A stretch of 64,000 nt of DNA from Pristiophorus japonicus (Eukaryota), in contig NW_027254672.1 in the NCBI RefSeq assembly GCF_044704955.1, forward strand, positions 1 to 64,000, read 5' to 3'. The translations under genes were made by a program, and so were the position numbers. Below are positions 18,876-62,588 of this stretch, in pieces (position 1 is the first letter of the stretch; each line of letters opens with the position of its first letter). The notes under the pieces were generated by a model. That model searched no databases. It was not told the origin of the DNA and worked only from the letters and a program-made list of their open reading frames with translations.

Positions 18876-19220
18876 GTGCAGTGGCGGAACTAGTACTGGT
18901 TTAGTCTCCGACAGTCTATAGCGTGAGAGAGCGTCAGACTGTGAGCTTACGCTGCACCATGAAGAAAGACAACGTCAGGCAAGTGGATGTTCACTGGTCC
19001 CAACAGCTCCCTGGTACACACAAGGAGATGATACTTCATTACACAAATAATACATTAAAAAAGTAGCGGGGTTTTGCTGACCATTTTCAGTCTTCCAGGG
19101 ATGTCACCAGTATTAGCTTCATTCTGACCGTCACAGGCGTGCAGCACAGAAACACCGCTGCCTATATCTGCAGTGTGTGGAGCCGTATCGATGGAGCAGG
19201 AACCCAGCTGAATGTCATCG
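18876..19220 (+). pseudogene. VJ-type Ig V-domain exon 1 of receptor gene A (two in-frame stops)
   Basis: Acceptor ttcccag, donor gtatgt, 345 nt, phase 1-1. Translates AVAELVLV*SPTVYSVRERQTVSLRCTMKKDNVRQVDVHWSQQLPGTHKEMILHYTNNTLKK*RGFADHFQSSRDVTSISFILTVTGVQHRNTAAYICSVWSRIDGAGTQLNVI. Has Cys23, Trp41, Y-x-C and the J motif G-x-G-T-x-L-x-V. TAG stops at 18902 and 19064. Confidence 0.9.
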
Positions 19221-19375
19221 GTATGTAAATGTTAGCTATCACTCGCAGGTTCACAGGAACAGACCGCACTGGGACCTGTATCCGACCCACAGCAGGGCAG
19301 GGGGAAAGGATGGATTGTCCAAGATGGGAAGGGTTTTATTTTCACAAAGAAGTTGTTGGTTTAATAGAACAATAA

Positions 19376-19584
19376 TGTTGTGTATGAATAAAGAGTCTGA
19401 CCAGATACTGAGAGCTCAAAGTAAAGTGTGACCGTAGTCTTTTATTACAGGCCTCCAGAGTACCTCCCCAGCCTGTGAGGCCTCCTTAAGTACAGCTGCT
19501 CCCAAGGGCTTGTGGGATCCCTTGGGACTCCAGATGGGCCCTCTAATAATTAAACAAGGTATTTACAGGTTTACATATATAACA
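19376..19584 (-). mobile_element. Solo Gypsy LTR
   Basis: TG...CA, ~210 bp, homologous to 20632-20843. Confidence 0.85.
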
Positions 19585-20189
19585 TAAGAAATTAAAATTC
19601 CAAAGACAGCCAAAGTCAGCTCCTGCCTGAATTCAAAAGCGACCCAACTGAAAGGGTGTGTGTGTTAATGTGGCATTTAAATAGGAGCCAGCAGTGGCTC
19701 CAAATGTGAATCATGTGTTCATCACAAGGGGAAATGCCAGGGTTGGGCTGTCCTGAGGATCTGCTAATGAGGCCAGCAGTTGGCACGTTAACGTTGACTT
19801 TAGCAACTCTGCAGTGGGGAAGGACAAGGCAGCCATGGTTCCCACACTAAATGACTAACCCATGGTCCCTGCCGGAAAGTGTGTGTGTGTGTGGACACTG
19901 GCAGAGGACCAGGATCAGGCTTGGCGACAAGGCCTATAGAGTCAAGAGCCTGACAACACCCAGTGTCTGGGATTAGGTGAATAATGGGGAGAGGTTCTGG
20001 AAAGTGCGGCGCTCGGGATCAGAACTGAAAATGAAGCAAGGCAGCTCCTGCGCAGGTTTCCCGGGAGTCGGGTAATCCGGCAGTGAAAGGGAGGCGGGAG
20101 CGGCCCAATCCACAAGGTAAGTGCATGTTCCAGCACTGCTTCTGGGGCAAGAGGGGCAGGACTGCACCCCCCGCCATCAGCTACATCGA

Positions 20190-20481
20190 TTGTAGTCTCT
20201 CCCCCCCCCCGCCCAATCGTGTCCTCTCTCCCCCCCCTCCCCCGCCCAATGGTGGCCTCTCTCTTTCTGCCCCCCGCCCGATCGTGGCCTCCCTCTCTCT
20301 CTTTCACTCTCCCCCCCCACCCAATCGTGGCCTCTCTCTCTTATCCCCCCATCGATCGCGGCCTCTCTCTCTCTCCCCCACCCAATCGTGGCTTCTCTCA
20401 CTTCCCCACCACTGCCCGATCATGGCCTCTCTCTCTCCCCCACTCGTGGCCTCTCTCTCTCTCTCACACCGCCCAATCATG

Positions 20482-20516
<35 letters not shown>

Positions 20517-20631
20517 CACCCGCCCAATCGTGGCCTCTCTCTCTCTCTCTCTCTCTCACACGCCCGCCCAATCATGGCCTCTCTCTCCCCCACCCGTCCA
20601 ATCGTGGTCTCTCTCTCACTCTCTCTCCCCC
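20190..20631. repeat. ~30-bp CCAATC/CT-rich minisatellite, left part
   Basis: Unit approximately CCCACCCGCCCAATCGTGGC(CT)n; continues at 24391-24870. Confidence 0.9.
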
Positions 20632-23600
20632 TGTTATGAATGAATAAAGAGTCTGACTGGATACTGTGAACTCAAAGTAAAGTGTGACCTTAGACTTTTA
20701 TTGCAGGTGTCCAGAGTGCCTCTCCAGCCTGGGAGGCCTCCTTAAGTACCTGTGCTCCCAAGGGATTGTGGGATCCCTTGAGACTCCAGAGGATGAGCCA
20801 TATGGTGGCTGTACAAGGTATATACAAGGTTACATATATAACAACACTCCCCACAAAGTCAACAGTGTAACTATTTACAAGGTGAGTCGATCTGGGGGCC
20901 TTCTTGCCGTGATTGATCGTCTCGGTACAAATGACGCTGGTATTGGTGAATTATCTGTTGGGCCGTCACTGGGCTACTGTGCAGCTGGCCTTGCTGAGCT
21001 GCCTAGTATGGTGAGTCCTGCTGGGCTGCTGCGGATGATGGGTTCTGCTTCGTGGCCAACCGCGGTGTCGGTTGGCACTGGTGTGTATGTTGGGGGGGGG
21101 TCAAAGAAAGTAGGGTACAAAGTGGGTTGCTCAGTGAATCTGAGTTTGATTTGGTCCAAGTGTTTCCAGTGAATGAGTCCATTTGAAAGTTTGACCCGAA
21201 ACACCCTGCTCTCTTTGGCCACAACAGTGCCAGGAATCTACTTGGGACCTTGTCCATAATTTAATACAAATGTAGGATCATTGATTTCAATTTCGCGTGA
21301 CACATTTGAGCTATCATAATATGTGCTTTGTTGAACAGGAAGAGAGCAGGCGGCTTCATGTAAATCAGGGTGAACTAACAAGAGCCTTGTCTTAAGTGCC
21401 CTTTTCATGAGCAGTTCAGCAGGTGGAATCCCAGTGAGCGAGTGGGGTCTCGGGCGGTAGCTAAGCAGGACTCAGGATAGGCGAGTCTGCAGTGAGCCTT
21501 CAGTTACTCTCTTCAAGCCCTGATTGATAGTTTGCACTGCTCTTTCTGCCTGACCATTGGATGCTGATTTGAACGGGGCAGATGTGACATGTTTGATCCC
21601 GTTGCGGGTCATGAATTCTTTGAATTCGGCACTGGTAAAACATGGCCCATTGTCGCTCACACAGACATTGGGTAGTCCGTGCGTGGCAAACATGGCCCGC
21701 AGGCTTTCAGTGGTGGCAGCGGACGTGCTTGCCAACATTATCTCACATTCAATCCATTTGGAGAACGCATCTACAACCACAAGAAACATTTTACCCAAGA
21801 ACGGGCCTGCATAGTTGACATAGATCCTAGACCACGGTTTGGAGGGCTAAGACCATAAACTTAGTGACGCCTCCCTGGGTGCATTGTTCAACTGCAAGCA
21901 TGTGTTACATCTGTGCATGCAGGACTCTAAGTCCGCATCGATACCGGGCCACCACACATGGGATCTGGATATCACTTTCATCATTGCGATGCCTGGGTGG
22001 ATGCTGTGGAGGTCACTAATGAAGGTATCTCTGCCCTTCTTGGGGACCACTACTCGATTGCCCCACAGAAGGCAGCCTGCCTGTATAGACATTTCATATT
22101 TGTGCTACTGGTACAGCTTTATCTGTTCCTGCATTTCCACTGGGATACTGGACCAGCTCCCGTGCAGCACACAGTTTTTAACTAGGGCAAGTAAGGGTTC
22201 CTGGCTTGTCCAAGTTCTAATCTGTTGGGCTGTGACAGGTGATTGCTCACTCTCAAATGCTTCCATTACCATGACTAAATCTGCGGGTTGTGCCATTTCC
22301 ACCCCCGTGGTGGGCAATGGCAGCCTACTGAGAGCATGGGCAGAGTTTTCTGTGCCTGGTCTGTGGCGGATGGCATCTGTTATAAATGAAGAGACCTTTG
22401 TGTGTGTTAATGCAGGTGAGGCCCTTCGATGATTCCTCCAGCTCCTGCGTCATGTAGGCCAAGGTCAAGTCCAGATTCGTGAACATCTTTCCTCCCACCA
22501 GCCTGGCAAAAAGCCGTCGGACTTTGGTAGTGGGTATTGATTCTGCAGGGAGAAACGATTGATAGTTACTTTGTAATCACCACAGATTCTGACTGTGCTA
22601 TCTCACTTGAGGATTGGAACGATCGGACTGGCCCACTCATTGAATTCGATCAGCAATATGATGCTGCTGGCCTAGCTCGATCTCTACCCTTTTTCTCATC
22701 ATGTACGGTACTGCTCTTCTCTTGTAATGGATGGGTCACACCCCTGGAATTAGATGGATCTGCATTTCTGCTCCTTGGAACTTCCCGATGCTTGGTTTGA
22801 ACAGTGAAGGGAACTTGTTTAAGACCTGGACACACGAAGTGTCGTCAGCGGGCAAGAGCACGCTGAGGACGTCCCAGTTCCAGCGTATCTTTCCCAGCCA
22901 GCTCCTGCCAAGCAGCGTGGGACCATCGCCCGGTACCACCCAGAGTAGTAGCTTGTGCACCGCTCCATCGTAGGAGACTTTTACAGTAACACTGCCGACT
23001 ATGGGAATCATTTCCTTTGTGTAAGGTCTCAGTTTTGTGCGGATTGGAGTCAAGACTGGCCTTGAGGCCTTGCTGCACCATAATTTATCAAAAGTGTTTT
23101 TGCTCATAATGGGCTGGCTCGCACCCGTGTCCAGCTCCATTGACACCGGGAGTTCATTTAGTTCAACCTTCAGCATTATCGGGGGACACTTTGTGCTAAA
23201 TGTGTTCACCCCATATACCTCTGCCTCCTCAGTCTGAGGCTCTGGTTCGTGATGATCTGCCGTGGATCTGTTCATCCTCTGCTACATGGTGGTTTGCAGG
23301 ATTAACAGGATTTGCAACTCGCCTGTACATACATTGGAGGTGTCCCATTGTTCCACAGCCCTTGCAAACGTACCCTTTGAAGCAGCATGAATGGAAATGA
23401 TGCAGCGCCAACAAGTGTCTCAGTGTCCCAGTGTCCCAGTGTCTCTGTGTCCCAGTGTCCCAGTGTCCCAGTGTCCCAGTGTCTCACCCTTGATGATGGA
23501 CTCTGAGACATCTGCGGTCGTGCAGCTGCAGGCATGTGGAGCCTGCCCTGTATGTTGCGATGTGAAAACAACATCACTTTGTTCACAGTACTTGTAGCAG

Positions 23601-24390
23601 CACTTGCGTGCGGAGAGATTTGCTCAGTATTGTCACTGGTGGCAATGAACGCCGGGGCTATTGCTATGGCCTTACTCAAGGTTGGGGTCTACACAGTCAA
23701 AAGTTTGTGAAGTATCATTTCATGGCCAATGCCAAGTATGAAAAAGTCTCTGAGCATGTGCTCCAAATGTCCTTCAAATTCGCAATGTCCTGCAAGGGCG
23801 TCTTAGCTCAGCGATATAACTCACCACTTCCTGGCCTTCAGAACTTTTGTAGGTGTAGAACCGGTACCTCGCCATCAAAACGCTTTCCTTTGGGTTCAGA
23901 TGCTCCCAGCCAAGTGTGCATAAATCATTGTACGATATCTCTCTGGGTTTCGCTGGAGCAAGCAGCTTTTTCATGAGGCCATATGTTGGTGCCCCGCAGA
24001 CGGTGAGGAGAATTGCCCTTCGTTTGGCAGTGTTCGCTTATCCTTCCAGCTCGTTGGCCACGAAGTATTGGTCGAGTCGCTCCTGGAAGACTTCCCAATC
24101 ATTTCCCTCCAAAAATGTCTCCAGGATTGCCACTGTTGTCTGCATCGTTGGGTTTGTCATCTGTATCTCGTCGCCAGTTGTTATGTATGAATAAAGAGTC
24201 TGACTGGAAACTGTGAGCTAAAAGTAAAGTGTGACTTTTGTCTTTTATTGCAGGTCTCCAGAGTGCCTCTCCAGCCTGGGAGGCCTCCTTAAGTACCTGT
24301 ACTCCCAAGGGATTGTGGGATCCCTTGGGACTCCAGGGGATGAGCCCTCTGGTGGCGGTACAAGATATATACAAGGTTACAAATATAACA
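20632..24390 (-). mobile_element. Gypsy LTR retrotransposon with two 212-bp LTRs and an internal RT/RNaseH deletion
   Basis: LTRs at 20632-20843 and 24179-24390. PBS TGGCGACGAG (complementary to the tRNA-Ser(GCU) 3' end) and PPT. Gag CCHC, protease LDTGAS and integrase (VVDAFSKW, SDNGP, SNGQAERAV). CCCC on both flanks. Confidence 0.93.
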
Positions 24391-24870
24391 CCCCACACCC
24401 GCCCAATCATGGCCTCTCTCTCCCCCACCCGCCCAATCGGAGCCTCTCTCTCCCCCACCCGCCCAATCGTAGCCTCTCTCTCTCACTCTCTCCTGCCCGA
24501 CCAATCGTGCCCTCTCTCCCCGTCCACCCACCCAATCTTGGTCTCTCTCTCTCTCTCCCCCCCACCCGCCCAATCATGGCCTCCCTCTCTCTCCCCCAGC
24601 CGCCCAATCGTGGCCTCCCTCTCTCTCCCCCAGCCGCCCAATCGTGGCCTCCCTCTCTCTCCCGCAGCTGCCCAATCATGGCCTCCCTCTCTCTCCCCCA
24701 CCCGCCCAATCATGGCCTCTCTCTCCCCCACCCGCCCATTCATGGCCTCCCTCTCTCCCCCACCTGCCCAATCATGACCTCTTTCTCCCCACCCACACAA
24801 TCGTGGCCTCTCTCTCTCCCCCAGCCACACAATCGTGGCTTCCCTCCCTCTCTCCCCCACTATCAATCTC
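24391..24870. repeat. ~30-bp CCAATC/CT-rich minisatellite, right part
   Basis: Same unit as 20190-20631. Confidence 0.9.
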
Positions 24871-24886
24871 CGATTACATCCTTCCT

Positions 24887-25850
24887 TCCTGAGGGAGTGC
24901 TGCACTATCAGAGGGGCAGTACTGAGGGAGCGCTATACTATCGGAGGGGCAGTACTGAGGGAGTGCTGCACTGTCGGAGGGACAGTACTGAGGGAGCGCT
25001 GCACTGTCGGAGGGGCAGCACTGTGTGAGCGCCGCACTGTCGGAGGGGCAGCACTGAGAGAGCACCGCATTATCGGAGGGGCAGTATTGAGGGAATGCTG
25101 CACTGTCGGAGGGGCAGTACTGAGGGAGCGCCGCACTGTCAGAAGGGCAGTACCGAGGGAGCACCGCACTGTCAGAGGGGCAATACCGAGGGAGCGCTGC
25201 ACTGTCGGAGGGGCAGTTCTGAGGGAGTACGGCACTGTCGGGGGAGCAGCTGAGGGAGAAAGGCACTGTCCGAGGGGCAGTACTGAGAGGCGCTGCATTG
25301 TTGGAAGGGCAGTACTGTGGGAGCGCTACACTGTCGGAGGGGCAGTAGTGAGGGAGCGCTGCACTGTTGGGAGGGCAGTACTGAGGGAGTATGGCACTGT
25401 CAGAGGGGCAATACTGAGGGAACGCTGCACTCTCAGAGGGGAGCTACTGAGGGAGTATGGCACTGAGGGAGGGGCAGTACTGAGGGAGCACTGTACTGTT
25501 GGAAGGGCAGCACTGAGGGAGTGCTACACTGTCGGATGGGCAGTACTGAGAGAGTGCTGCATGGTTGGAGGTGCAGTACTGAGGGAGCGCTGCACTGTCG
25601 GAGGGGCAATACTGAGGGAGTATGGCACTGTCAGAGGGGCAGTACTGAGCGAGTGCTGCAATGTCGGAGGGGCAGTACTGAGCGAGTGCTGCAATGTCGG
25701 AGGGGCAGTACTGAGGGAGTATGGCACTGTTGGAGGGGCAGTACTGAGGGAGTATGGCACTGTTGGAGGGGCAGTACTGAAGGAGTGCTGCACTGTCGGA
25801 GGTGCCGTCTTTCAGATGAACATTAAACTGAGGCCCCGCCTGCCATCTCA
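24887..25850 (+). repeat. 33-bp minisatellite (~27-28 units) expanded from a Deu-SINE segment
   Basis: Unit GCAGTACTGAGGGAGCGCTGCACTGTCGGAGGG. The last unit runs into GCCGTCTTTCAGATG..., as in the SINE at 18088-18135. Confidence 0.88.
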
Positions 25851-26758
25851 GGCCGACTTAATAGAACCTACGGCCACTCCTTATTCCTACATTCCTTGTC
25901 CATTTTTTTTCCTTTCTGTTTCCTTATCTTGTTCTTTCATTGCCCGCCCCCCCACATGATGTGAATTTAAATCCTACACCACAGCACTGGTTCCTCTTCC
26001 AGCGAGGAAGAGGATTGTAAATTCAATGCGCCAATTGATAGGCCACAAATGTTACCTGCCAAATGTCAACCCAAGCCTAGATGTAGTCCAGGGTCTGCTG
26101 TGGAAATCACAAGTGAACAGCCCCATTTCTGACATTATGATGGAGGGAAATTCATTGATGAAGCAGCTGCAGATGGTTGGGACAAAGGAACGAAGCATAA
26201 TGTCCCAGGGCTGAAATGATTGTCCTCTGACAACCAAAACATCTTCCTGTGTGTTAGGTATGGCCTCAGCTACAGGCCATTTACCTAATTTTGTTGAGGC
26301 TCTTTGGTGCCATACAGATTGGAAAGCTGCCTTGTGTCCATGTTTGCATCAAGGCTGTTATGACATCTGGAGCTGAATGGCTGAAGTGGAAACTCAACGG
26401 AAAGAGAGGTGGCTATTAATGAGTAGGTGTCGCTTGATGGCACTACAGATGAATCCTTCTATCACTACTGATTGGAAGGAGACTGTCCAGTACAGTAACC
26501 GCTAGGCTAATGGTTATGGGACTGGACTAGCAACCCGTCATGAGTTCAAATCTCCCAATGGTGCCAATAGTTCAATACAAGCTCTGCATTAAAAGGTTTC
26601 TCTTCTCATGAATTAGTAATTAACTAACTCTACGAGTTAATTATTGGAATTGATTTTGCTGAACAATGCAATATTGTGCTTTGCATTTAAGCACGTAGGA
26701 CACCTCCCCATCTGCCGATGGTCTTCAAGCTATTTCTATCTTTCCTTTCCCCTTAAAG

Positions 26759-27084
26759 GAGTAGTTATCCAGTCTCCAGGCCTGGAACGTGTCACAGAGG
26801 GTCACACGGCGCGGTTACAGTGCACCATGCGGCACTCCAGAGTGAGTGACACCGAAGTCCACTGGTACCGGCAACTACCGGGGCAAGATATGGAGTGGGT
26901 TTTAACACATGAGGCAAGTGGCAGCACACGAGGGAGCCCAGGTTCCACTGACCGTCTCCAGCCTTCCAGAGACACCTCCAATAACAGCTTCATTCTGACA
27001 GTCACAAATGTGCAGCCCAGTGACACTGCCGCCTATTACTGTAAAGTGTGGGGAGATATCAGTGGGAGCAGCTCAATGTAACCA
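26759..27084 (+). pseudogene. VJ-type Ig V-domain exon 2 of receptor gene A (7-nt deletion in the J strand)
   Basis: Acceptor ccttaaag, donor gtaagt at 27085. Reads GVVIQSPGLERVTEGHTARLQCTM..VHWYRQLPG..FILTVTNVQPSDTAAYYCKVWGDISGS. Relative to the 62 kb copy it lacks GGAACCC, so GSGTQLNVT becomes GSSSM* (TAA 27079). It also lacks 12 nt (PVLT) near the start. Confidence 0.92.
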
Positions 27085-27226
27085 GTAAGTACAGTTCACA
27101 TTGTAATAATATTATATCTGCGTCTGACATCACCTTGTGGATCAGGGCTGGTAAAGGTCCAATATTTGATGGCAAATATCTTATTCTGTTAGTCCAGTCC
27201 CTTACATGTCCCTCTCACTTTCACAG

Positions 27227-27361
27227 ATCCTAATGTCCAAATGGATGAAGACCTGAGGATTGTCTGGATCAGTGTGGGGGCTGTGCTGGGACTTACTCTC
27301 ATTGCTGGAGTTGCTCTTGTCTTCTGTATCAGACAGGCATGGTTCGGGAAACTGCAATCCT
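27227..27361 (+). pseudogene. Stalk/transmembrane exon of receptor gene A
   Basis: Pyrimidine-rich acceptor ctttcacag 142 nt after the VJ2 donor, phase 1. Reads NPNVQMDEDLR-IVWISVGAVLGLTLIAGVALVFCI-RQAWFGKLQS: an uncharged 24-aa hydrophobic helix followed by a basic residue. The donor is uncertain: T|GTACGT at 27362 fits the next exon's phase; CAG|GCATGG at 27337 is an alternative. Confidence 0.82.
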
Positions 27362-28895: not shown

Positions 28896-28982
28896 CACCT
28901 TAGATTGTTGAGAGACACTAAAGTACCAAATATGCTGTTGCCTAAAGTGACCTATCTGGATTTCTTGCTTTCCTTTTTTCAG

Positions 28983-32252: not shown

Positions 32253-35200
32253 TATGGCAGGGGGATGGGAACCAATGCAGGGAGATAGAGGGAAACAAAA
32301 AGGAGGCAAAAACAAAAGACAGAAAGGAGATGAGGAAAAGTGGAGGGCAGAGAAACCCAAGGCAAAGAACAAAAAGGGCCATTGTACAGCAAAATTCTAA
32401 AAGGACAGAGGGTGTTAAAAAAACAAGCCTAAAGGCTTTGTGTCTTAATGCAAGGAGTATCCGCAATAAGGTGGATGAATTAACTGTGCAAATAGATGTT
32501 AACAAATATGATGTGATTGGGATTACGGAGACGTGGCTCCAGGATGAGCAGGGCTGGGAACTCAACATCCAGGGGTATTCAACATTCAGGAAGGATAGAA
32601 TAAAAGGAAAAGGAGGTGGGGTAGCATTGCTGGTTAAGGAGGAGATTAAGGCAATAGTTAGGAAGGACATTAGCTTGGATGATGTGGAATCTATATGGGT
32701 AGAGCTGCAGAACACCAAAGGGCAAAAATCGTTAGTGGGAGTTGTGTACAGACCTCCAAACAGTAGTAGTGATGTTGGGGAGGGCATCAAACAGGAAATT
32801 AGGGGTGCGTGCAATAAAGGTGCAGCAGTTATAATGGGTGACTTTAATATGCACATAGATTGGGCTAACCAAACTGGAAGCAATACGGTGGAGGAGGATT
32901 TTCTGGAGTGCATAAGGGATGGTTTTTTAGACCAATATGTCGAGGAACCAACTAGGGGGGAGGCCATCTTAGACTGGGTGTTATGTAATGAGAAAGGATT
33001 AATTAGCAATCTCGTTGTGCGAGGCCCCTTGGGGAAGAGTGACCATAATATGGTGGAATTCTGCATTAGGATGGAGAATGAAACAGTTAATTCAGAGACC
33101 ATGGTCCAGAACTTAAAGGCTAACTTTGAAGGTATGAGGCGTGAATTGGCTGAGATGGATTGGCGAATGATACTTAAGGGGTTGACTGTGGATGGGCAAT
33201 GGCAGACATTTAGAGACCGCATGGATGAACTACAACAATTGTACATTCCTGTCTGGCATAGAAATAAAAAAGGGAAGGTGGCTCAACCGTGGCTATCAAG
33301 GGAAATCAGGGATAGTATTAAAGCCAAGGAAGTGGCATACAAATTGGCCAGAAATAGCAGCGAACCTGGGGACTGGGAGAAATTTAGAACTCAGCAGAGG
33401 AGGACAAAGGGTTTGATTAGGGCAGGGAAAATGGAGTATGAGAAGAAGCTTGCAGGGAACATTAAGACGGATTGCAAAAGTTTCTATAGATATGTAAAGA
33501 GAAAAAGGTTAGTAAAGACAAATGTAGGTCCCCTGCAGTCAGAATCAGGGGAAGTCATAACGGGGAACAAAGAAATGGCGGACCAATTGAACAAGTACTT
33601 TGGTTCGGTATTCACGAAGGAGGACACGAACAACCTTCCGGTTATAAAAGGGGTCGGGGGGTCTAGTAAGGAGGAGGAACTGAGGGAAATCCTTATTAGC
33701 CGGGAAATTGTGTTGGGGAAATTGATGGGATTGAAGGCCGATAAATCCCCAGGGCCTGATGGACTGCATCCCAGAGTACTTAAGGAGGTGGCCTTGGAAA
33801 TAGTGGATGCGTTGACAGTCATTTTCCAACATTCCATTGACTCTGGATCAGTTCCTATGGAGTGGAGGGTAGCCAATGTAACCCCACTTTTTAAAAAAGG
33901 AGGGAGAGAGAAAACAGGGAATTATAGACCGGTCAGCCTGACATCGGTAGTGGGTAAAATGATGGAATCAATTATTAAGGATGTCATAGCAGTGCATTTG
34001 GAAAGAGGTGACATGATAGGTCCAAGTCAGCATGGATTTGTGAAAGGGAAATCATGCTTGACAAATCTTCTGGAATTTTTTGAGGATGTTTCCAGTAGAG
34101 TGGATAAGGGAGAACCAGTTGATGTGGTATATTTGGACTTTCAGAAGGCGTTCGACAAGGTCCCACACAAGAGATTGATGTGCAAAGTTAGAGCACATGG
34201 GATTGGGGGTAGTGTACTGACATGGATTGAGAACTGGTTGTCAGACAGGAAGCAAAGAGTAGGAGTAAATGGGTACTTTTCAGAATGGCAGGCAGTGACT
34301 AGTGGGGTACCGCAAGGTTCTGTGCTGGGGCCCCAGCTGTTTACACTGTACATTAATGATTTAGATGAGGGGATTAAATGTAGTATCTCCAAATTTGCGG
34401 ATGACACTAAGTTGGGTGGCAGTGTGAGCTGCGAGGAGGATGCTGTGAGGCTGCAGAGCGACTTGGATAGGTTAGGTGAGTGGGCAAATGCATGGCAGAT
34501 GAAGTATAATGTGGATAAATGTGAGGTTATCCACTTTGGTGGTAAAAACAGAGAGACAGACTATTATCTGAATGGTGACAGATTAGGAAAAGGGGAGGTG
34601 CAAAGAGACCTGGGTGTCATGGTACATCAGTCATTGAAGGTTGGCATGCAGGTGCAGCAGGCGGTTAAGAAAGCAAATGGCATGTTGGCCTTCATAGCAA
34701 GGGGATTTGAGTACAGGGGCAGGGAGGTGTTGCTACAGTTGTACAGGGCATTGGTGAGGCCACACCTGGAGTATTGTGTACAGTTTTGGTCTCCTAACCT
34801 GAGGAAGGACATTCTTGCTATTGAGGGAGTGCAGCGAAGGTTCACCAGACTGATTCCCGGGATGGCGGGACTGACCTATCAAGAAAGACTGGATCAACTG
34901 GGCTTGTATTCACTGGAGTTCAGAAGAATGAGAGGGGACCTCATAGAAACATATAAAATTCTGACGGGGTTAGACAGGTTAGATGCAGGAAGAATGTTCC
35001 CAATGTTGGGGAAGTCCAGAACCAGGGGTCACAGTCTAAGGATAAGGGGTAAGCCATTTAGGACCGAGATGCGGAGGAACTTCTTCACCCAGAGAGTGGT
35101 GAACCTGTGGAATTCTCTACCACAGAAAGTTGTTGAGGCCAATTCACTAAATATATTCAAAAAGGAGTTAGATGAGGTCCTTACTGCTAGGGGGATCAAG

Positions 35201-35334
35201 GGGTATGGCGAGAAAGCAGGAATGGGGTACTGAAGTTGAATGTTCAGCCATGAACTCATTGAATGGCGGTGCAGGCTAGAAGGGCCGAATGGCCTACTCC
35301 TGCACCTATTTTCTATGTTTCTATGTTTCTATGT
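31522..35334 (+). mobile_element. Young, near-full-length CR1 LINE (5'-truncated within ORF1)
   Basis: Esterase ORF1 remnant plus uninterrupted EN-RT ORF2, and a 3' tail of (TTTCTATG)n. Confidence 0.95.
32330..35233 (+). CDS. CR1 ORF2: APE endonuclease + reverse transcriptase, intact 967 aa
   Basis: Motifs [57 protein letters not shown] and FADD, with no stops. Confidence 0.97.
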   Translation: MRKSGGQRNPRQRTKRAIVQQNSKRTEGVKKTSLKALCLNARSIRNKVDELTVQIDVNKYDVIGITETWLQDEQGWELNIQGYSTFRKDRIKGKGGGVALLVKEEIKAIVRKDISLDDVESIWVELQNTKGQKSLVGVVYRPPNSSSDVGEGIKQEIRGACNKGAAVIMGDFNMHIDWANQTGSNTVEEDFLECIRDGFLDQYVEEPTRGEAILDWVLCNEKGLISNLVVRGPLGKSDHNMVEFCIRMENETVNSETMVQNLKANFEGMRRELAEMDWRMILKGLTVDGQWQTFRDRMDELQQLYIPVWHRNKKGKVAQPWLSREIRDSIKAKEVAYKLARNSSEPGDWEKFRTQQRRTKGLIRAGKMEYEKKLAGNIKTDCKSFYRYVKRKRLVKTNVGPLQSESGEVITGNKEMADQLNKYFGSVFTKEDTNNLPVIKGVGGSSKEEELREILISREIVLGKLMGLKADKSPGPDGLHPRVLKEVALEIVDALTVIFQHSIDSGSVPMEWRVANVTPLFKKGGREKTGNYRPVSLTSVVGKMMESIIKDVIAVHLERGDMIGPSQHGFVKGKSCLTNLLEFFEDVSSRVDKGEPVDVVYLDFQKAFDKVPHKRLMCKVRAHGIGGSVLTWIENWLSDRKQRVGVNGYFSEWQAVTSGVPQGSVLGPQLFTLYINDLDEGIKCSISKFADDTKLGGSVSCEEDAVRLQSDLDRLGEWANAWQMKYNVDKCEVIHFGGKNRETDYYLNGDRLGKGEVQRDLGVMVHQSLKVGMQVQQAVKKANGMLAFIARGFEYRGREVLLQLYRALVRPHLEYCVQFWSPNLRKDILAIEGVQRRFTRLIPGMAGLTYQERLDQLGLYSLEFRRMRGDLIETYKILTGLDRLDAGRMFPMLGKSRTRGHSLRIRGKPFRTEMRRNFFTQRVVNLWNSLPQKVVEANSLNIFKKELDEVLTARGIKGYGEKAGMGY

Positions 35335-46150: not shown

Positions 46151-46389
46151 TTGTATACACGCGCTGTCTCCTGTTACCGTCCATGGTCCACAGGTGGCTC
46201 AATGTCACTTCACTTCCCCACATTGTTGTCACAGCTCGAATACAAGCGATCATATTGGGATGTGGGTTGAAAGGATTGGCCCCACGTTCTCAGCCAGGAC
46301 TGTGAGCCTGTGTGCTGCAGGAGGGAAGATGGAGTTGTCCCGGGAACTATTGGCATTGGCCGCAGTTACTGCCCTGACTGGGGAGTGTT

Positions 46390-52434: not shown

Positions 52435-55400
52435 TCAGAATCGTGGAAATTCATGGCACAGGAGGCTATTCGACCCATCGTGTCTGTGCCGGAGGACTAA
52501 GAGCTATCCAGCCTAATCCCACTTTCCAGTTCTTGGTCTGTATCCTTGTAGGGTATGGCACTTCAAGTGCATATCCAAGTACTTTTTAAATGTGATGAGG
52601 GTTTTTGCCACTCCTAGCCTTTTAGGCAGTGAATTCCAGAGCCCCACTGCTCTCTCAGTGGAAAAAGTTCTCAACTCCCCTCTAGTCCTACCAATCACCT
52701 TAAATCTATACCCCCTGGTTGTTGACCCCTCTGCTAAGGAAAATACAGGCAACTCTCGATTATCCGGGTCCCACGGGGATTGAGCTATTTCGGGTAAACG
52801 ATTTTTCCGTTAGGGCGAGTTTACATTTATAAGTTAAAACTTGAATGAATCAATACAAACAGTAACAAAAGATAGACATTACCAGCATGCATGTACAGGT
52901 TCTGTGCCTGGAACCCGGTGCCAGCACCATCCCCGTTCCCAACGTCAGCGGCGGCCGCGAGAGACAGCGGCTGCAGCAGCGCGCACACACCTCAGCAAAG
53001 TAAAGGCAGAGGAGGGTGATTTTTATGGTGAGTGAGAGAGAGAGTGTGTGAGAGAGAAACTGTGCGAGATTGTGTGTGCGAGAGAGAATGAGCAAATATA
53101 AATGAGCACAGTGTTTGGAAGGCGATTTTTCCAAATTATTTGGAGCTGTCTTTTCACTTGTTAGCCACAGAATTTTAAATCCCGATACAACGGTTTCCCG
53201 TTGGATCCGTGTACGGATAATCGAGAGTTGCCTGTAGGTCATTCCTATCCACTCTTATCTTGGCCCCTCATCATTTTATACACCTCAATAAGTCTCCCCT
53301 CAGCCACCTCTGTTCCAAAGAAAACAACACCAACCTATCCAATCTTTCTTCATAGCTAAAATTCACCAGTCATGAAAAAATTCTCGTAAATTTCCTCTGC
53401 ACACTCTCTAGTGCAATTACATCTTTCCTGTAATGTGGTGACCAGAACAGTATGCTGTGCTCTAGCTGTGGCCTATCAAGTGTTTTAATGCAGTTCTAGC
53501 ATAAGCTCCCTGCTCATATATTCTATGCCTCAGCTGAGAAAGGAAAGTATCCCGTATGCCTTCTTAATCACCGTATCTACCTGTCCTGTTACCTTCAGGG
53601 ATCTGTGGACATGCATTTCAAGAACCCTCTATTCCTCTACACTTCTCCGTATTCTACCATTTATTGTGTATTCCCTTGCCTTGTTAACCCTCCCCAAATG
53701 GAATATCTCACACTTCTTCGGATTGAATTCCATTTGCCACCTTTCTGCCCACTTGTCCAGTCCATTGGCATCTTCCTGCAGTATGCCTCAGTGCCAACCA
53801 CACGGCCAATTTTTGTATCATCTTCAAACTTCTTAATCATACCTCCTATATTGGAATCTAAATCATTGACGCATACCACAAAAAGCAAGGGACCTACTAC
53901 TGAGCCCTGCGGAACCCCATTGGAAACAGCCTTCCAGTCACCAAAACACCCGTCGACCATTACCTTTTGCTTCCTGCAACTGAGACAATTTTGGATCCAA
54001 CTTGCCACTTCCCCTTGGATCAGATGGACTTTTACTTTCCTGACCAGTCTGCCAGGTTGGACCTTGTCAAATGCCTTGCTTAAAATCCATGTAGACAAAC
54101 GCACTACCCTCATCAACCATCCTTGTTACCTCCTCAAAAATAATCAAGTTAGTCAGACATGACCTTCCTTTAACAAATCCATGCTGATTGTCCTTGATTA
54201 ATTCATGCCTTGCTAAATGATGATTAAGACTGTGCCTCACAAATGTTTCCAACAATTTTCCCATCACCGAGGTTAGGCTGACTGGCCTGTAATTACTTGC
54301 TCTATCCCGTTCTCCTTTTTTAAACAATAGTACAACATTAGCAGTCCTCCAGTCCTCCAGCATCACGCCTGTAGCCTGAGAGGATTGGAAAATGATGGTC
54401 AGAGCCTCTGCTATTTTCTTCCTTGCTTCTCCTAACAGTCTGGGATACATTACATCCGGGTCTGGCGATTTATCTACTTTCAAGGATGTTAAACCCCTTA
54501 ATATTTCCTCTCTCACTACGGTTATTTCATCTAATATTTCACACTCCTCCCCCTTAACTACAATGTTTGCATTGTCCCTCCTTTTTGTGAAGACAGATGC
54601 AAAGTATTCATTAAGAACCATACCCATATCCTCCATCACAATCTTCCTTTTTTGGTCTCCCACAGACTCTACTCTTTCTTTAGTTATCCTCATGCTCTTT
54701 ATATAGTTATAAAACATTCTTGATTTTACTTGCCAATATTTTTTCATATCTTTGCATTCCTAATTTTTAAATTTTACCCCTGCACTTTCTATACTCCTCT
54801 AGGCTTTCTGCAGTATTTAGCTCTTGGTATCCAACATACACTTCCCTTTTTTGCCTTATCCCACTGTATGTCCCTTGACATCCATGGAGTTCTAGAGTTG
54901 GGAGTCCCACCACTGCTCCAACACTGATTTACCTTCGTTGCTGTTTGAAGTCCACTTTTGCTAAGTCACATCTCGGCTTGGTAAAATTGGCCTTTCCCCA
55001 ACTGAGAACTTTTACTCTTGGTTTATCTTTCTCCTTTCCATAACTACACTAAATCTAACTGAATTATGATCACTAACACCAAAATGCTCTCCCACTGATA
55101 CCCCTACCATCTGTCCAGCATCATTCCATAAGTCCAGAACCGCCCCTCTCTTGTTGGGCTTGCTACGACTGACTAAAAACGTTCTGCTGAATGCATTTTA
55201 TGAATTCTGTACCCTCTGTACGTTTTACACTGATTCTATCCCAGTTAATGTTAGGGTAGTTGAAATCCCCTACTATTTCTGCCCTATTGTTTTTGCACTT
55301 CTCAGAAATGTGCTTATATTTGCTCTTCTCTCTTCCTCTGATGATTTGGGGGTCTATAGTACACTCCCAGCAGTGTGATTGCCCCTTTTTTGTTCTTCAG

Positions 55401-55550
55401 TTCAACCCATAAGGCCTCATTTGATGATCTTTCTAACGTATTATCCCTCCTCACAGCTGTAATTGTTTCCAATATTTCGACTGCCCCTTCCATTTTTTAT
55501 CCCCCTCTCTATCTCATCTGAAAACCCTGTAACCAGGAATGTTTTGCTGC
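52435..55550 (-). mobile_element. Degenerate CR1 LINE (third subfamily)
   Basis: ORFs 54067-54747, 53661-54116 and 52513-52752. Confidence 0.88.
52746..53234. mobile_element. pogo/Tigger-like MITE inserted in a CR1
   Basis: Perfect 21-bp TIR CAGGCAACTCTCGATTATCCG with TA TSD. Confidence 0.9.
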
Positions 55551-55554
55551 CATT

Positions 55555-58500
55555 CGTGGCAAGTAGAATCAGGGACAACCCAAAGATGTTTTATAAATAT
55601 ATTAAGAGCATGAGGATAACTAGAAAAAGAGTGGGGCCTATTAGATACCATAAAGTAAATCTGTGTGTGGAGGCAGAAGATGTGGGTATGATTCTTAATG
55701 AATACTTTGCATCTGTTTTCACAAAAGAGAGGGGCGATGAAGACTTTGCAATGAGGGAGGAGGAGTGTGAAATATTAGATGAGATAAACATAGTGAGAGA
55801 GGAAGTATTAAGGGGCTTAACAACTTTGAAAGTGGATAAATCCCCAGGCCCGGATGAAATGTATCCCTGTTAAGAGAAGCAAAAGAAGAAATAGCAGAGG
55901 CTCTGACCATCATTTTCCAATCCTCTCTGGCTACAGGTGTGGTACCAGAGGACTGGGAGGACTACTGATGTTGTACCTTTGTTTAAAAAGGATGAAATGG
56001 ATAGACCAAGTAATTACAGGCCAGTCAGTCTTACCTCAGTGGTGGGAAAAATCCTGAGGGACATGATAAATCTTCATTTGGAAAGACATGGATTAATCAA
56101 GGATAGTCAGCACAAATTGGTTAAGGGAAGGTCATGTCTGACTAACTTGATTGAATTTTTTGAGGAGGTAACAAGGAGGGTCAAAGAGGACGGTGTGTAT
56201 GATATAGTGTATATGGATTTTAGCAACGTTTTTCATACGATCCCACATGACAGACTGGTCACGAAAGTAAAAGCCCATGGGATCCAGGGCAAAGTGGCAA
56301 GTTGTATCCAAAATTGGCTCATGGGCAGGAAGCAATGGGTAATGGTTGATGGGTGTTTTTGTGCCTGGAAGGCTGTTTCCAGTAGGGGTCCGCAGGGCTC
56401 AGTGCTGGATCCCTTGCTTTTTGTGGTGTATATCAATGACTTGGTCTTGAATGTTGGGGGTATGATTAAGAGGTTTGTAGATGACACTAAAATAGGCTGT
56501 GTGGTTGATAATGAAGAAGCAAGCTGCGGATTGCAAGGCGATATCAATGTACTGGTCAGGCGGTTGGAACAGTGGAAAATGGATTCAATCCGGATAAGTG
56601 TGAGGTAATGCATTTGGGGAGGTCTAACAAGGCAAGGGAATACACAGTAACTGGTACGACACTGAAAAGTGTAGAGGAACAAAGGGACCTTGGAATGCAG
56701 GTCCACAGATCCCTAAAGGTAGTAGGCCAGGTAGATAAGGTGGTTAAGAAGGCAGAGAGAATACTTGCCTTTGTTAGTCGAGGCATGGAATACAAGAGCT
56801 AGGAGGTTATGCTTGAACTGTAAAAGCACAGGTTAGGCCGCAGCTGGAATACTGTATGCAGTTCTGTCACCCCATTACAGGAAAGGAGGGTAGCTAATGT
56901 AACACCATTTTTTAAAAAAGGAGAGAGAAAATGGGTAATTATAGACCGGTTAGCCTGACATCAGTAGTGGGGAAAATGTTGGAATCAATTATTAAAGATG
57001 AAACAGCAGCACATTTGGAAAGTAGTGACAGGATCGGGCCAAGTCAGCATGGATTTATGAAAGGGAAATCATGCTTGACAAATCTTCTGGAATTTTTTGA
57101 GGATGTAACTAGTAGAGTGGAGAAGGGAGAACTAGTGGATGTGGTGTATTTGGACTTTCAAAAGGCTTTTGACAAGGTCCCACACAAGAGATTGATGTGC
57201 AAAATTAGAGCAAATGGTATTGGGGTAATGTATTAACGTGGATAGAGAACTGGTTGGCAGACATGAAGCAGAGAGTCGGGATAAACGGATCCTTTTCTGA
57301 ACAGGCAGGCAGTGACTAGTGGGGTGCTGCAGGGTTCAGTGCTGGGACCCCAGCCATTTACAATATACATAAATGATTAACATGACGGAATTGAGAGTAA
57401 TATCTTCAAGTTTGCAGATGACACTAAGCTGGGTGGCGGTGTGAGCTGTGAGGAGGATGCTAAGAGGCTGCAGGGTGACTTGGACAGGTTAGGTGAGTGG
57501 GAAAATGCATGGCAGATGCAGTATAATGTGGATAAATGTGAGGTTAGCCACTTTGGTGGCAAAAACATGACAGCAGAATATTATCTGAATGGCGGCAGAT
57601 TAGGAAAAGGTGCAACGAGACTTGGGTGTCATGGTACATCAGTCATTGAAAGTTGGCATGCAGGTACAGCAGGTGGTGAAGAAGGCAAATGGCATGTTGG
57701 CTTTCATAGCGAGGGGATTTGAGTATAGGAGCAGGGAGGTCTTACTGCAGTTGTACAGGGCCTTGTTGAGGCCTCACCTGGAATATTGTGTTCAGTTTTC
57801 GTCTCCTAATCTGAGGAAGGATGTTCTTGCTATTGAGGGAGTGCAGCGAAGATTCACCAGGCTGATTCCCGGGATGGCAGGACTGACATGAGGAGAGACT
57901 GGATCGACTGGGCCTCTATTCACTGAAGTTTAGAAAGATGAGAGGAGATCTCATAGAAACATATAAAATTCTGACGGGACTGGACAGGTTAGATGCAGGA
58001 AGAATGTTCCCGATGCTGGGGGAGTCCAGAACCAGGGGTCACAGTAAGGATAAGGGGTAAGCCATTTAGGACCGAGATGAGGAGAAATCTGTTCACTCAG
58101 AGAGTTGTTAACCTGTGGAATTCTCTACCACACAGAGTTGTTGATGCCAGTTCGTTAGATATATTCAAGAGGGAGTTGGTCCTTACGGCTAAAGGGATCA
58201 AGGGATATGGAGAGAAAGCAGGAAAGGGGTACTGAGGTGAATGATCAGCCATGATCTTTTTGAATGGTGATGTAGGCTGGAAGGGCCAAGTGGCCTACTC
58301 CTGCACCTATTTTCCATGTTTCTATGAAAGATGTGATTGCACTGGAAAGGGTGCAGAGGAGATTTACAAGAATGTTGCCTGGGCTGGAGAATTTTGGCTT
58401 TGAGGAAAAATTGGAGATGCTGGGTCTGTTTTCTTTGGAACAGAGGAGGCTGAGGGGAGACCTGATTGAGGTGTATAAAATTATGAGGGGCCTAGATAGA

Positions 58501-58838
58501 ATAGATAGGAAGGACCTGTTTCCCTTTGCAGAGGGGTTAACAACCAGGGGACATAGATTTAAAGTAATTGGGAGGAGGTTTAGAGGAGATATTAGGGGAA
58601 ATGTCTTTACCCAGAGGGTAGTGGGAATCTGAAACTCTCTGCCTGAAAGAGTGGTAGAGGCAGGAACCCTCACCACATTTAAAAAATACTTGTATGTGCA
58701 CTTAAAGTGCCGTAACCTACAGGGCTACGTTCCAAGAGCTGGAAAGTGGGGTTAGGCTGGATAGCTCTTGGTCGGCCGGTGCGGACACGATGGGCCAAAA
58801 TAACCTCCTTCCATGCTGTAAATTTCTATGATTCTATA
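55555..58838 (+). mobile_element. CR1 (third subfamily) interrupted by another CR1 (56886-58325)
   Basis: TSD GAAAG at 56881-56885 and 58326-58330; the RT reading resumes at 58331. Confidence 0.88.
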
Positions 58839-59280
58839 CGTAGCTTTCCCTTGATTATTATGGTCTGTTTTCCCAGAATTAATGTGACATAGCTCTTGTT
58901 GGAAAACATCAGAGCCAATAATTTACTTAACCCTTGAAACCAATGGAAAATGTTGAATCAGAAAATGAAATGTGCTGGCTACTTTTAACCTGGTTACAAT
59001 ACTCAGTGTGAACAAAGGAGAGGATTTGTGTGTGTGCGGCTGTGGGTGTTAATGATTTAGTAAAAGCTGTTCATCACCACACAACATTCAATCCATCACC
59101 GTACTGGGCTACTGATGGCCCGTTACCACACTGGGCCCATTGCTCTCGGTCTATTCCAGGCAGTGTTGCTGCTATGGATCCATTTTAGGTGAAGGTTTCC
59201 CACAGTTTCACCATTTATACAAAAAGTGACAGATATCACACGCTTTGCCTCTACCCTTGCCAAGTGTGAGAGAAACATAC

Positions 59281-59323
59281 CTTTAAGCTCACTGTATATG
59301 GACTGATCCGATTCCTTCAATGC
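59281..59323 (-). pseudogene. ITIM-bearing cytoplasmic exon, probably of receptor gene B
   Basis: On the minus strand: acceptor gctctgttccctgttag, 43-nt exon ALKESDQSIYSELK+G, donor AAG|GTATGT. SIYSEL fits the ITIM consensus (S/I/V/L)xYxx(L/V). Unique sequence 2.9 kb downstream of the 62 kb VJ exon. Confidence 0.6.
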
Positions 59324-59345
59324 CTAACAGGGAACAGAGCAATGA

Positions 59346-62135
59346 TAGAAACATAGAAACATAGAAAACAGGTGCAGGAGTAGGCCATTCGGCCCTTCGA
59401 GCCTGTACCACCATTCAATAAGATCTTGGCTGATCATTCACCTCAGTACCCCTTTCCTGCTTTCTCTCCATATCCCTTGACCCCCTTTAGCAGTTAGGGC
59501 CATATCTAACTCCCTCTTGAATATATCTAACGAACTGACATCAACAACTCTGTGTGGTAGAGAATTCCACAGGTTAACAACTCTCTGAGTGAAGAAGTTT
59601 CTCCTCATCTCGGTCCTAAATGGCTTACCCCTTATCCTTAGACTGTGACCCCTGGTTCTGAACTTCCCCAACATTGGGAACATTCTTCCTGCATCTAACC
59701 TGACTAGTCCCGTCAGAATTTTATATGCCTCTATGAGATTCTCCCCTCATTCTTCTGGATCCCGGGAATCAGTCTGGTGACCCTTCGCTGCACTCCCTCA
59801 ATAGCAAGCACGTTCCTCAAATTAGGAGACCAAAACAGCACACAATACTCAAGGTGTGGTCTCACCAAGGTCCTGTAGAACTGCAGCAAGACCTCTCTGC
59901 TCCTATACTCAAATCCCCTTGCTATGAAGGCCAGCATGCCATTTGCTTTCTTTGCTGTCTGCTGTACCTGCATGCCTAACTTCAAAGACTGATGTACCAT
60001 GATACCCAGGTCTCATTGTACCTCCTCTTTTACTAATCTGTCACCATTCAAATAATAATCTACCTTCCTGTTTTTGCCACCAAAGTGGATAACCTCACAT
60101 TTATCCACATTATACTGCATTTGCCCATTCACCTAACCTGTCCAAGTCCCCTGCAGCCTCTTAGCATCCTCTTCGCAGCTCGCTCTGCCACCCATCTTAG
60201 TGTCATCTGCAAACATGGAGATATTACATTCAATTCCTTCGTCAAAGTCATTAATGTATATTGTAAATAGCTGGGGTCCCAGCATTGAACCCTGCAGCAC
60301 CCCACTAGTCACTGCCTGCCATTCTGAAAAGGACCCGTTTATTCCCACTCTTTGCATCCTGTCTGCCAACATCTCTATCCACGTCAATATATTACCCCCA
60401 ATACCATGTGCCTTAATTTTGCACACTAGTCTATTGTGTGGGACATTGTCAAAAGCCTTTTGAAAGTCCAAATACATCACATCCACTTATTCTCCCTTAT
60501 CCACTCTACTAGTTATATCCTCAAAAAGCTCGAGAAGATTTGTCAAGCTTGATTTCCCGTTCATAAATCCATACTGACTTGGTTCGATCCTGTCACTGCT
60601 TTCCAAATGCGCTGCTATTTCATCTTTAATAATTGATTCCAGCATTTTCCCCACCACCGATGTCAGGCTAACCGGTCTATAATTCCCTGTTTTCTCTCCC
60701 TCCTTCTTTAAAAAGTGGTGTTACATTAGCTACCCTCCAATCCATAGGAACTGAATCAGAGTCCATGGAATGTTGGAAAATGACCACCAATGCATCTTCT
60801 ATTTCTAGAGCCACTTCCTTAAGTACTCTGGAGTGCAGACTATCAGGACCTGGGGATTTATCGGCCTTCAGTCCCTTCAATTTCCCTAACACCATTTCCT
60901 GACTAATAAGGATTTCCCTCAGTTCCCCCTTCTCGCTAGACCCTCTGTCCCATAGTATTTTCGGGAGGTTATTTGTGTCTTCCTTAGTGAAGACAGAACC
61001 AAAGTATTTTTTCAATTGGTCTGCCATTTCCTTGTTCCCCATTATGGATTCCCCTGATTCTGACTGCAAGAGACCTACATTAGTCTTCACTAATATTTTT
61101 CTCTTCACATATCTGTAGATGCCTCTGCAGTCAGTTTTTATGTTCCCTGCAAGCTTACTCTCATACCCTATTTTCCCCCTCCTAATTAAACCCTTAGTCC
61201 TCCTCTGCTGAATACTAAATTTCTCCCAGTCCTCAGGTTTGCTGCTTTTTCTGGCCAATTTATATGCTTCTTCCTTGGATTTAACACTTTCCCTAATTTC
61301 CCTTGTTAGCCACGGCTGAGCCACCTTCCCTTTATTTTTACGCCACACTGTGATGTACAATTGTTGTAGTTCATCCATGTGATCTTTAAATGTCTGCCAT
61401 TGCCTATCCACCGTCAACCCTTTAAGTATCAGTCGCCAGTCTATCCCAGCCAATTCACGTCTCATACCGTCGAAGATTCCTTTCCTTAAGTTCAGAACCC
61501 TAGTCTCTAAATTAACTGTGTCACTCTCCATCTTAATGAAGAATTCTACCATATTATGGTCACTCTTCCCCAAGGGGCCTCGCACGACCAGATTGCTAAT
61601 TAATCCTCTCTCGTTACACAAAATCCAGTCTAGGATGGCCTGCTCTCTCGTTGGTTCCTCGACATATTGTTCTCGAAAACCATCCCTAATACACTCCAGG
61701 AAATCCTCCTCCACAGTATTGCTACCAGTTTGGTTAGCCCAATCAATATGTAGATTAAATTCACCCATGATAACTGCTGTAACCTTATTGCACGCGTCCC
61801 TAATTTCCTGTTTGATGCCATCCCCAACCCCATACTACTGTTTGATGGTCTGTACACAACTCCCACGAACGTTTTCTGCCCTTTGGTTCTTCGCAGCTCT
61901 ACCATATAGATTCCACATCATCCACGTTAATGTCCTTCCTTACGATTGCGTTAATCTCCTCTTTAACCAGTAACGCTACCCCACCTCCTTTTCCTTCCTG
62001 TCTATCCTTCCTGAATATTGAATACCCCTGGATATTGAGTTCCCAGCCTTGGTCACCCTGGAGTATGTCTCCGTAATCCCAATTACATCATATCCATTAA
62101 TATCTATCTGCGCAGTTAATTCGTCCACCTTATTG
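59346..62135 (-). mobile_element. 5'-truncated CR1 LINE (EN-RT, frameshifted)
   Basis: ORFs 60677-61768, 60133-60486, 59731-60000 and 59438-59683. Confidence 0.93.
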
Positions 62136-62245
62136 CATTAAGTTTACCAGCGGTTTTTGTGATATTAATCAGATACTGATCAATAAATCCATGTGTAAGA
62201 GGTTATTCCTTCTATTCAGGTTAATATAATGTAAACTGTATTTAC

Positions 62246-62588
62246 TGGTTACATTGAGCTGGGTTCCGCTCCCGCTGATATCGCCCCACACTTTACAGTA
62301 ATAGGCGACAGTGTCACTGGGCTGCACGTCTGTGACTGTCAGAATGAAGCTGTTATTGGAGGTGTCTCTGGAAGGCTGGAGACGGTCAGTGGAACCTGGG
62401 CTCCCTCGTGTGCTGCCACTTGCCTCGTGTTAAAACCCACTCCGTATCTGGCCCCGGTAGTTGCCGGTACCAGTGGACATCGGTGTCGCTCACTCTGGCG
62501 TTCCACATGGTGCACTGTAACCGCGCCGTGTGACCCTCTGTGACACGTTTTAGGCTCGGAGACTGGGTCAGGACAGGGACAACTGCAC
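62246..62588 (-). pseudogene. VJ-type Ig V-domain exon of convergent paralogous receptor gene B (2-nt frameshift)
   Basis: On the minus strand: acceptor cattaaag, donor gtaaat. Reads AVVPVLTQSPSLKRVTEGHTARLQCTMWNARVSDTDVHWYRQLPGPDTEWVLT/(-2 nt)/EASGSTRGSPGSTDRLQPSRDTSNNSFILTVTDVQPSDTVAYYCKVWGDISGSGTQLNVT. Length 343 nt (345-2). About 95% identical to 26759-27084 by hand alignment. Confidence 0.92.

Follow-up and report, generated by a model that had tools for sequence, protein, structure and literature searches.

Broken joined VJ exons in a Pristiophorus japonicus contig as probable modules of a multi-V receptor family of cartilaginous fish, likely of sigma-2 light-chain descent

Genes in which an immunoglobulin variable (V) region and its joining (J) strand share a single exon have been sought as relics of the gene into which the RAG transposon moved (PMC12227049). 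UrIg and UrIg2 are VJ-C1 genes that exist as single paralogues in the major histocompatibility complex (MHC) or the antigen-receptor complex (PMC12227049), and PRARP has been named as a single-exon nonrearranging VJ system (PMC10751288, PMC11599192). RAG-type germline joining is described for sharks (PMC2193156), and joined genes of the sigma-2 light chain are described for nurse shark (PMC4279169) and for gar, coelacanth and turtle (PMC5985310). Here we analyse positions 1 to 64,000 of contig NW_027254672.1 of Pristiophorus japonicus, a stretch of 64,000 nucleotides referred to below as the window, which carries three joined VJ exons. All three are broken, dead copies. They represent modules of a predicted chondrichthyan receptor family with one to nine V domains per protein, likely derived from a germline-joined light-chain gene of the sigma-2 lineage.

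The joined VJ exons and their family

Six-frame translation and exact mapping placed a V exon and its J strand within one exon three times in the window, each exon being bounded by AG and GT in phase 1 (Table 1). An earlier reading of the window, made from the sequence only, had described three such exons with J in the same exon, which holds, but had not recognized that every copy is broken by stops or frameshifts. Copy 1 contains two TAG stops, at 18902 and 19064, and reads VHWSQQ and YIC instead of VHWYRQ and YYC. In copy 2, deletions have removed 12 nt from the exon start and 7 nt from J, and the frameshift caused by the J deletion leads to a stop right before the donor with loss of the GxG motif; the exon still matches the Pfam V-set with an E value of 3e-17, indicating a V-domain match beyond chance. 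In copy 3, a 2-nt deletion in the middle of the exon places J out of frame relative to the exon start. The junction peptides quoted from the window were found in copies 1 and 3, whereas copy 2 lacks GxG and ends in a stop.

A search for longer proteins gave 161 candidates, from which 103 were taken. All species-labelled proteins in this set are chondrichthyan (sharks, rays, skates and Callorhinchus) and one is unlabelled; those labelled Pristiophorus japonicus are the closest (89-92%), and the names are all automatic. The proteins contain one to nine V domains, and a sigma-2 C1 query matched none of the 103. A membrane segment is present in 81 of them and is uncharged in all 81, and a regular expression for immunoreceptor tyrosine-based inhibition or switch motifs (ITIM/ITSM) matched 63 of these 81 models, in one case (P0051) in a tail that is probably mis-joined. 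Some family tails are short or carry YENV/YMAL motifs. Two models from outside this set, P0115 and P0119 (catshark and bamboo shark), combine a membrane arginine with a short tail; no charged membrane exon of the activating type was found in the seven stretches searched, including those near C9:0.65, 1.01 and 4.42 Mb. AlphaFold predicted a disordered tail and a membrane helix in addition to three beta domains, for which the block pLDDT was mostly 80-95. Matches in the PDB, by sequence and by Foldseek, were mostly engineered multi-V antibodies, which confirms the immunoglobulin V fold only, and the ESM Atlas returned generic V-set clusters. Taken together, the family is predicted to consist of chondrichthyan type I membrane proteins with tandem pre-joined V domains and no C1 domain. 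Because Callorhinchus has family members, the joined form predates the split between chimaeras and elasmobranchs, which dates to about 420 million years ago. Our literature search found no description of this multi-VJ family; most subscription journals lie outside its coverage, and an earlier account is possible.

The third complementarity-determining region (CDR3) is six residues long in 286 of 288 measurable domains, 11 of 299 domains having been left out for want of GxG, which agrees with the fixed length proposed from the window. The J phenylalanine, proposed to be replaced by Asp or Ser, depends on the domain type. Ser occupies this position in most type-B domains (92 of 121) and Asp in some, but the N-terminal domains (type A) mostly keep Phe (43 of 61, with Tyr in 15) and type C has Tyr (47 of 52). 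In rays, Asp is found in type-B domains that are open as well, indicating that this residue is not solely a product of pseudogene decay. The N-terminal domains are the more variable among paralogues.

How the J end is used was read from an intact gene, L114, for which a 1022-nt contig (contig 17, run X19) joins exon B directly to exon C with no differences. The same joint is present in runs X1 and X2, which come from two other studies. The missing intron implies that these contigs represent RNA, and they show that the J end is spliced to another V exon rather than to a constant exon. For the window exons between 18700 and 27600, no joint between their own exons occurs among the 15 of 92 contig joints listed, and the contigs over copy 2 in X1 and X19 carry a full-length J.

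Rearrangement signals and the origin of the V domain

Neither a heptamer nor a nonamer was found near the three window exons. A scan of the window gave four loose matches resembling a recombination signal sequence (RSS), at 5025, 10680, 59200 and 17438, all at least 1.4 kb from an exon, in line with the claim that the exons have no RSS. As a control, a looser version of the scanner detected RSSs after genuine immunoglobulin heavy-chain (IgH), T-cell receptor (TCR)-gamma-type and sigma-type V segments and one sigma-2-like V segment of the same genome. The exact J motif, which covers part of the family range, has 76 copies in the genome, none of them with a heptamer within 14 nt upstream, and a V-end-plus-heptamer pattern, which likewise covers part of that range, matched once, at a site that is not a V exon. 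RSS-flanked V and J segments, the mark of a rearranging locus, were thus not found in these scans. With the joined form shared by sharks, rays and Callorhinchus and no RSS-flanked family J found in these genome scans, the earlier picture of a nonrearranging, innate-type and amplified domain is upheld. Nurse shark kappa-type NS4 genes provide a documented case of recent germline joining (PMC2193156) and raise the question of whether the exons are recent by-products of a locus that is still rearranging. An identical joined layout with a six-residue junction, spanning chimaera, rays and sharks, and the lack of heptamers at the J and V ends largely refute this reading, and we regard it as very improbable indeed.

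In the 50%-representative search, the nearest single V domains outside the family were light chains that cluster with the named Heterodontus immunoglobulin sigma-2 (WKK30312.1). Over 95 framework columns, type-B domains show a mean identity of 47% to sigma-2, 34% to heavy-chain V (VH), 34% to lambda, 30% to sigma, 27% to TCR-gamma and 24% to NITR-like domains, where all class labels except sigma-2 were assigned from motifs, constant domains and RSS type. A whale-shark sigma-2-type query found family exons as its best matches in the Pristiophorus genome. The likeness to TCR-gamma and lambda noted from the window therefore named the wrong relatives, the closest V domains being those of sigma-2 light chains. 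Two maximum-likelihood trees, one of 91 rows (LG+G4) and one of 46 rows (mixture model), were built from 152 rows, aligned after the exclusion of four domains without the second Cys. The family is monophyletic in both (99/95 with 91 rows, 97/95 with 46) and groups with elasmobranch sigma-2 and a joined sigma-2-like VJ-C gene (97/87 and 98/73, respectively), while coelacanth and caecilian sigma-2-like rows fall outside that group in the larger tree (82/90). The Cys-Trp spacing is 13 in 115 of 121 type-B domains and the Trp-Cys spacing is 59 in 118 of 121, and all 52 type-C domains have both; these spacings are also found in most sigma-2 domains, and type A differs. The sigma-2 lengths of 8 residues for CDR1 and 7 for CDR2 (PMC5985310) are found in types B and C. 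A six-residue CDR3, EVWGYI, near-identical to the type C junction, is present in three sigma-2 models from carpet sharks.

A germline-joined V domain of another antigen receptor, namely VH, lambda or TCR-gamma, could also have founded the family, as the CxVW end and the Trp of the C' strand occur in all three. Approximately unbiased (AU) tests did not reject a grouping with lambda/kappa (p 0.087, 46 rows) or, in the larger tree, with TCR-gamma (p 0.27). The TCR-gamma grouping was rejected under the mixture model (p 0.010), and type-B identity to these classes lies 13-20 points below the sigma-2 value, which makes such an origin rather improbable.

Alternatively, the V domain may be a relic that was never split by the RAG transposon, with its sigma-2 likeness explained by slow evolution of both from their precursor. 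AU tests with the family outside all rearranging receptors gave p values of 0.24 (91 rows) and 0.11 (46 rows), leaving that position unrejected, and no split form of the family was found in the genome. Several sigma-2-like genes are joined as well (L041/L074; PMC5985310), and slow shark evolution and other nonrearranging relics have been discussed (PMC12227049). Both trees, on the other hand, nest the family among light-chain, VH and TCR-gamma domains beside sigma-2. The family is without the C1 domain of UrIg and PRARP, does not lie on contig C23, where the IgH V array is found, and has no named member outside cartilaginous fish in the protein searches. Of the two origins that the sequence-only reading had offered, ancient germline joining is thus favoured, and a never-split exon, though unrejected by the AU tests, is unlikely. 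It is also doubtful that an unsplit pre-RAG V exon is preserved, as a multicopy living relic, by the family together with those sigma-2-type VJ-C genes that are joined in sharks, gar, coelacanth and turtles.

Several points weigh against descent from a joined sigma-2-lineage gene. The trees draw on a short alignment of 95 columns, the protein models are automatic annotations, and UrIg, PRARP, NKp30 and chimaera sigma-2 were not knowingly included. The key node of the mixture tree is unstarred, the deeper order is open with bony-vertebrate sigma-2-like rows unresolved, and the two AU placements described above, outside all rearranging receptors and with lambda/kappa, stand unrejected. The family is sister to elasmobranch sigma-2 rather than nested within it, and the two lie on different chromosome-sized contigs in the six species compared. 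The 13/59 spacing is present in shark VH segments too, and the EVWGYI genes branch within sigma-2, so that their likeness to the type-C junction may have arisen by convergence. The activating role proposed below draws on just two models, P0115 and P0119. With these points taken into account, a sigma-2-lineage origin by germline joining is still the reading that we consider probable.

The residues of the V-V pairing face were compared under a numbering assigned by offset. Sigma-2 domains have Gln44 in 45 of 59, Pro50 in 56 of 59 and Tyr103 in 59 of 59. Among the 121 type-B domains, 20 have Gln44 and at most 5 have Pro50. None of the 52 type-C domains has Tyr103, and 27 have Asn at that position, which can create a glycosylation site on the pairing face; type A has Ile103 in 56 of 61 together with a shortened C-C' loop. 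The look at pairing residues that had been suggested thus found the interface mostly lost in types A, B and C, with two or more residues of the heavy-chain pairing set (Gln44, Pro50, Tyr103 and Phe118) mostly lost in each main domain type, indicating that Fv-like pairing of the family domains is unlikely. A complex prediction for two copies of domains A-B gave a score of 0.00, which decides neither for nor against pairing.

Other V genes of this genome were encountered in the same searches. L041/L074 (G000:C23:8.899-8.902 Mb, minus strand), on the IgH contig, consists of a germline-joined VJ exon and one C1 exon, has relatives in Heptranchias and Stegostoma (P0175, P0226) and forms its own sigma-2-like branch. 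Identification of this gene as UrIg2 was dropped on account of its single C1 exon and its grouping with sigma-2. L071:1491-1830 (G000:C23:3.514 Mb) is a V segment of divergent sequence that has sigma-2-like CDR lengths and carries an RSS with a 12-bp spacer; it lies near VH in one tree, is unresolved in the other, and has no J or C within the 8 kb examined. L042 (G000:C1467:258,798-259,150) is a fully germline-joined IgH VDJ exon, a known shark feature. Canonical sigma-2 V or C was not found in the Pristiophorus assembly among the best 150 of 1640 and of 699 candidates, reflecting either an assembly gap or a loss; Squalus and Heptranchias have canonical sigma-2.

Gene context and the Pristiophorus cluster

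The window holds parts of two convergent pseudogenes (Table 1). The transmembrane exon comes after copy 2 on the same strand, and the tail exon, which is matched by 10 family proteins, shares the strand of copy 3. The title of the sequence-only reading mentioned neither the transmembrane nor the tyrosine-motif exon, and the VJ exons, described there as stand-alone domains, are instead pseudogene copies of multi-V membrane receptor modules. No transmembrane exon was found between the tail exon and copy 3, and neither window gene yielded a leader exon; a weak match to a family leader peptide at 46266-46325 on the plus strand (E 0.008) was placed in neither. The first V exon of the minus-strand gene lies outside the window (C4060:75.4-75.8 kb) and is of type A with a frameshift at J, and contig C4060 carries another gene with V, transmembrane and tail exons at 164-213 kb. 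The repeat between copy 3 and the tail exon, which we take to be LINE-like by resemblance, has additional copies within the window, and the rest of the window is largely interspersed repeats. Tandem arrays of 33-nt and 34-nt units occupy 24889-25802 and 24392-24860, respectively, and are abundant in shark sequencing runs.

Table 1. Features of the two window pseudogenes, in window coordinates
Feature	Position	Strand	Basis
VJ exon copy 1, divergent type 'D', pseudogene	18876..19220	+	donor GTATGT
VJ exon copy 2, type B, broken	26759..27084	+	alignment to intact exon L114:260-604
Stalk + transmembrane exon, uncharged, P0088/P0067 subtype	27227..27361	+	tblastn 64% identity, E 3e-12; splice sites
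Short cytoplasmic exon, ITIM-like SIYSEL	59281..59323	-	80% identity to P0061 tail, E 3e-7; splice sites
Interspersed repeat between copy 3 V exon and tail exon	59345..62136		84% over 2.9 kb to 32463-35332
VJ exon copy 3, type B, second V exon of minus-strand gene	62246..62588	-	mapping + alignment

A search of the genome with copy 2 gave 762 candidates, of which the best 150 were scored, three of them judged by position only. C9 (0.65-6.1 Mb) and 17 smaller contigs hold 138 of these 150 matches. The other 12 are on C23 and C1467, and of the four that were read, three are IgH V segments and one is a joined VJ-C gene. The family comprises at least about 130 exons in this genome, frameshifted exons being counted twice in the matches. 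Certain loci, with 99.9% identity over 2-3 kb, may represent duplicated haplotypes. All 13 type-D exons among the scored matches carry one or two TAG stops, and each has, 7.7-9.3 kb downstream, a type-B exon that shares the 7-nt deletion of copy 2; J is shortened in L001-L013 and full-length in L014-L030. The other twelve broken type-B loci are 95.7-97.1% identical to copy 2. These shared lesions and identities in 13 D-B units indicate that the unit was amplified after breaking. The cluster would thus evolve by birth and death, with the window's D-B-transmembrane unit copied about 13 times after it broke, and the three dead exons of the window add little beyond evidence of this turnover.

At L048/L075 (G000:C9:4,433,000-4,442,200, minus strand), the donor of a type-B VJ exon is missing, and the exon continues into a repeat in which a 42-nt unit recurs about 208 times. 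The reading frame stays open for some 2,900 codons and contains 201 N-glycosylation sequons; compared with the CDR3-J 42-mer of the same exon, the unit's majority letters agree at 25 of 42 positions. A comparable repeat stalk, with a membrane segment at its end, is present in the skate model P0078 (1999 aa). The repeat is likely a J-derived, heavily glycosylated stalk.

Proposed function and comparison with known systems

In the history that we propose, a joined sigma-2-type VJ exon would have been placed above a new transmembrane segment and a tyrosine-motif tail, without a C1 exon, before chimaeras and elasmobranchs separated. Because each exon is in phase 1-1, tandem duplication of the VJ exon could have built the multi-V chains. 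The VL-VH pairing residues would have decayed, making the domains likely unpaired binding or spacer units. In SIRP-alpha, PD-1 and SLAM receptors, SH2 phosphatases or adaptors are recruited by the tyrosine-motif tails; by analogy, ligand binding may cause the ITIM/ITSM tyrosines to be phosphorylated and SHP-type phosphatases or SAP-type adaptors to be recruited. The small number of members that combine a short tail with a membrane arginine would be activating partners. Receptor families of this kind usually bind a self-marker or a microbial surface ligand. Proteins of the same origin could instead serve adhesion or another non-immune surface role, with the tyrosine motifs used for another purpose; tandem V adhesion molecules exist, and the short or YENV/YMAL tails would suit such a role. 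The conserved ITIM/ITSM sets, the birth-and-death amplification and the variable N-terminal domains fit immune paired receptors, and we consider a non-immune role quite improbable.

Among described systems, the V domain of the immunoglobulin light chain sigma-2 (sigma-cart, NS5, type I) is closest by identity and trees. It has the CDR1/CDR2 spacing of types B and C and a similar exon start (xLADPVL / xLAVPVL), joined forms of it are known, and a six-residue CDR3 occurs in the three carpet-shark models. The family differs from sigma-2 in its tandem V domains without a C1 exon, its membrane anchor and tyrosine motifs, its lost interface residues and its different chromosome. PRARP has a VJ-C1 structure. 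UrIg and UrIg2, like the family, are elasmobranch genes with a single-exon nonrearranging VJ (PMC12227049). In contrast to all of these, the family is V-only, with no C1 found, and multicopy, and is located on C9 and unplaced contigs. With respect to the MHC and the IgH/TCR-alpha-delta complex, the locations tied to UrIg, UrIg2 and PRARP, it is not on the IgH contig C23; the MHC was not located, an MHC II beta search of the genome giving no match.

Teleost NITRs have V and I domains. Like the family, they are clustered multigenes with J-like GxG strands, ITIM tails and likely activating partners. Identity to the family is only 22-29%, however, and the sampled domain types form one V clade apart from the NITR-like rows, which were recognized by motif, in the 91-row tree. 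Membership among TCR-gamma genes does not fit either, with 24-27% mean identity and TCR-gamma-type V segments with 23-RSS lying on contig C1. SIRP, NKp30/XMIV and skate MDIR have joined VJ-type or immunoglobulin domains with inhibitory or activating signalling, and NKp30, XMIV and MDIR are likened to the family by description only. Joined VJ-type or immunoglobulin domains with signalling are also described for the CD28 family (PMC11599192). Unlike SIRP, the family has no C1 domain, and unlike CD28-family members it has no proline-rich stretch in CDR3.

If descent from a germline-joined sigma-2-lineage gene is correct, the family took the reverse route to that sought in single-exon VJ relics, in that an antibody V domain frozen by germline joining gave rise to a large innate receptor family, and a joined VJ exon alone would not indicate pre-RAG ancestry. 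In operation the family would resemble the paired inhibitory and activating receptors of the immunoglobulin superfamily, having type I membrane proteins with ITIM/ITSM patterns in most membrane-segment models as judged by motif. Cartilaginous fish would thereby gain a candidate functional counterpart of NITR, KIR and LILR, hidden so far under borrowed database names.

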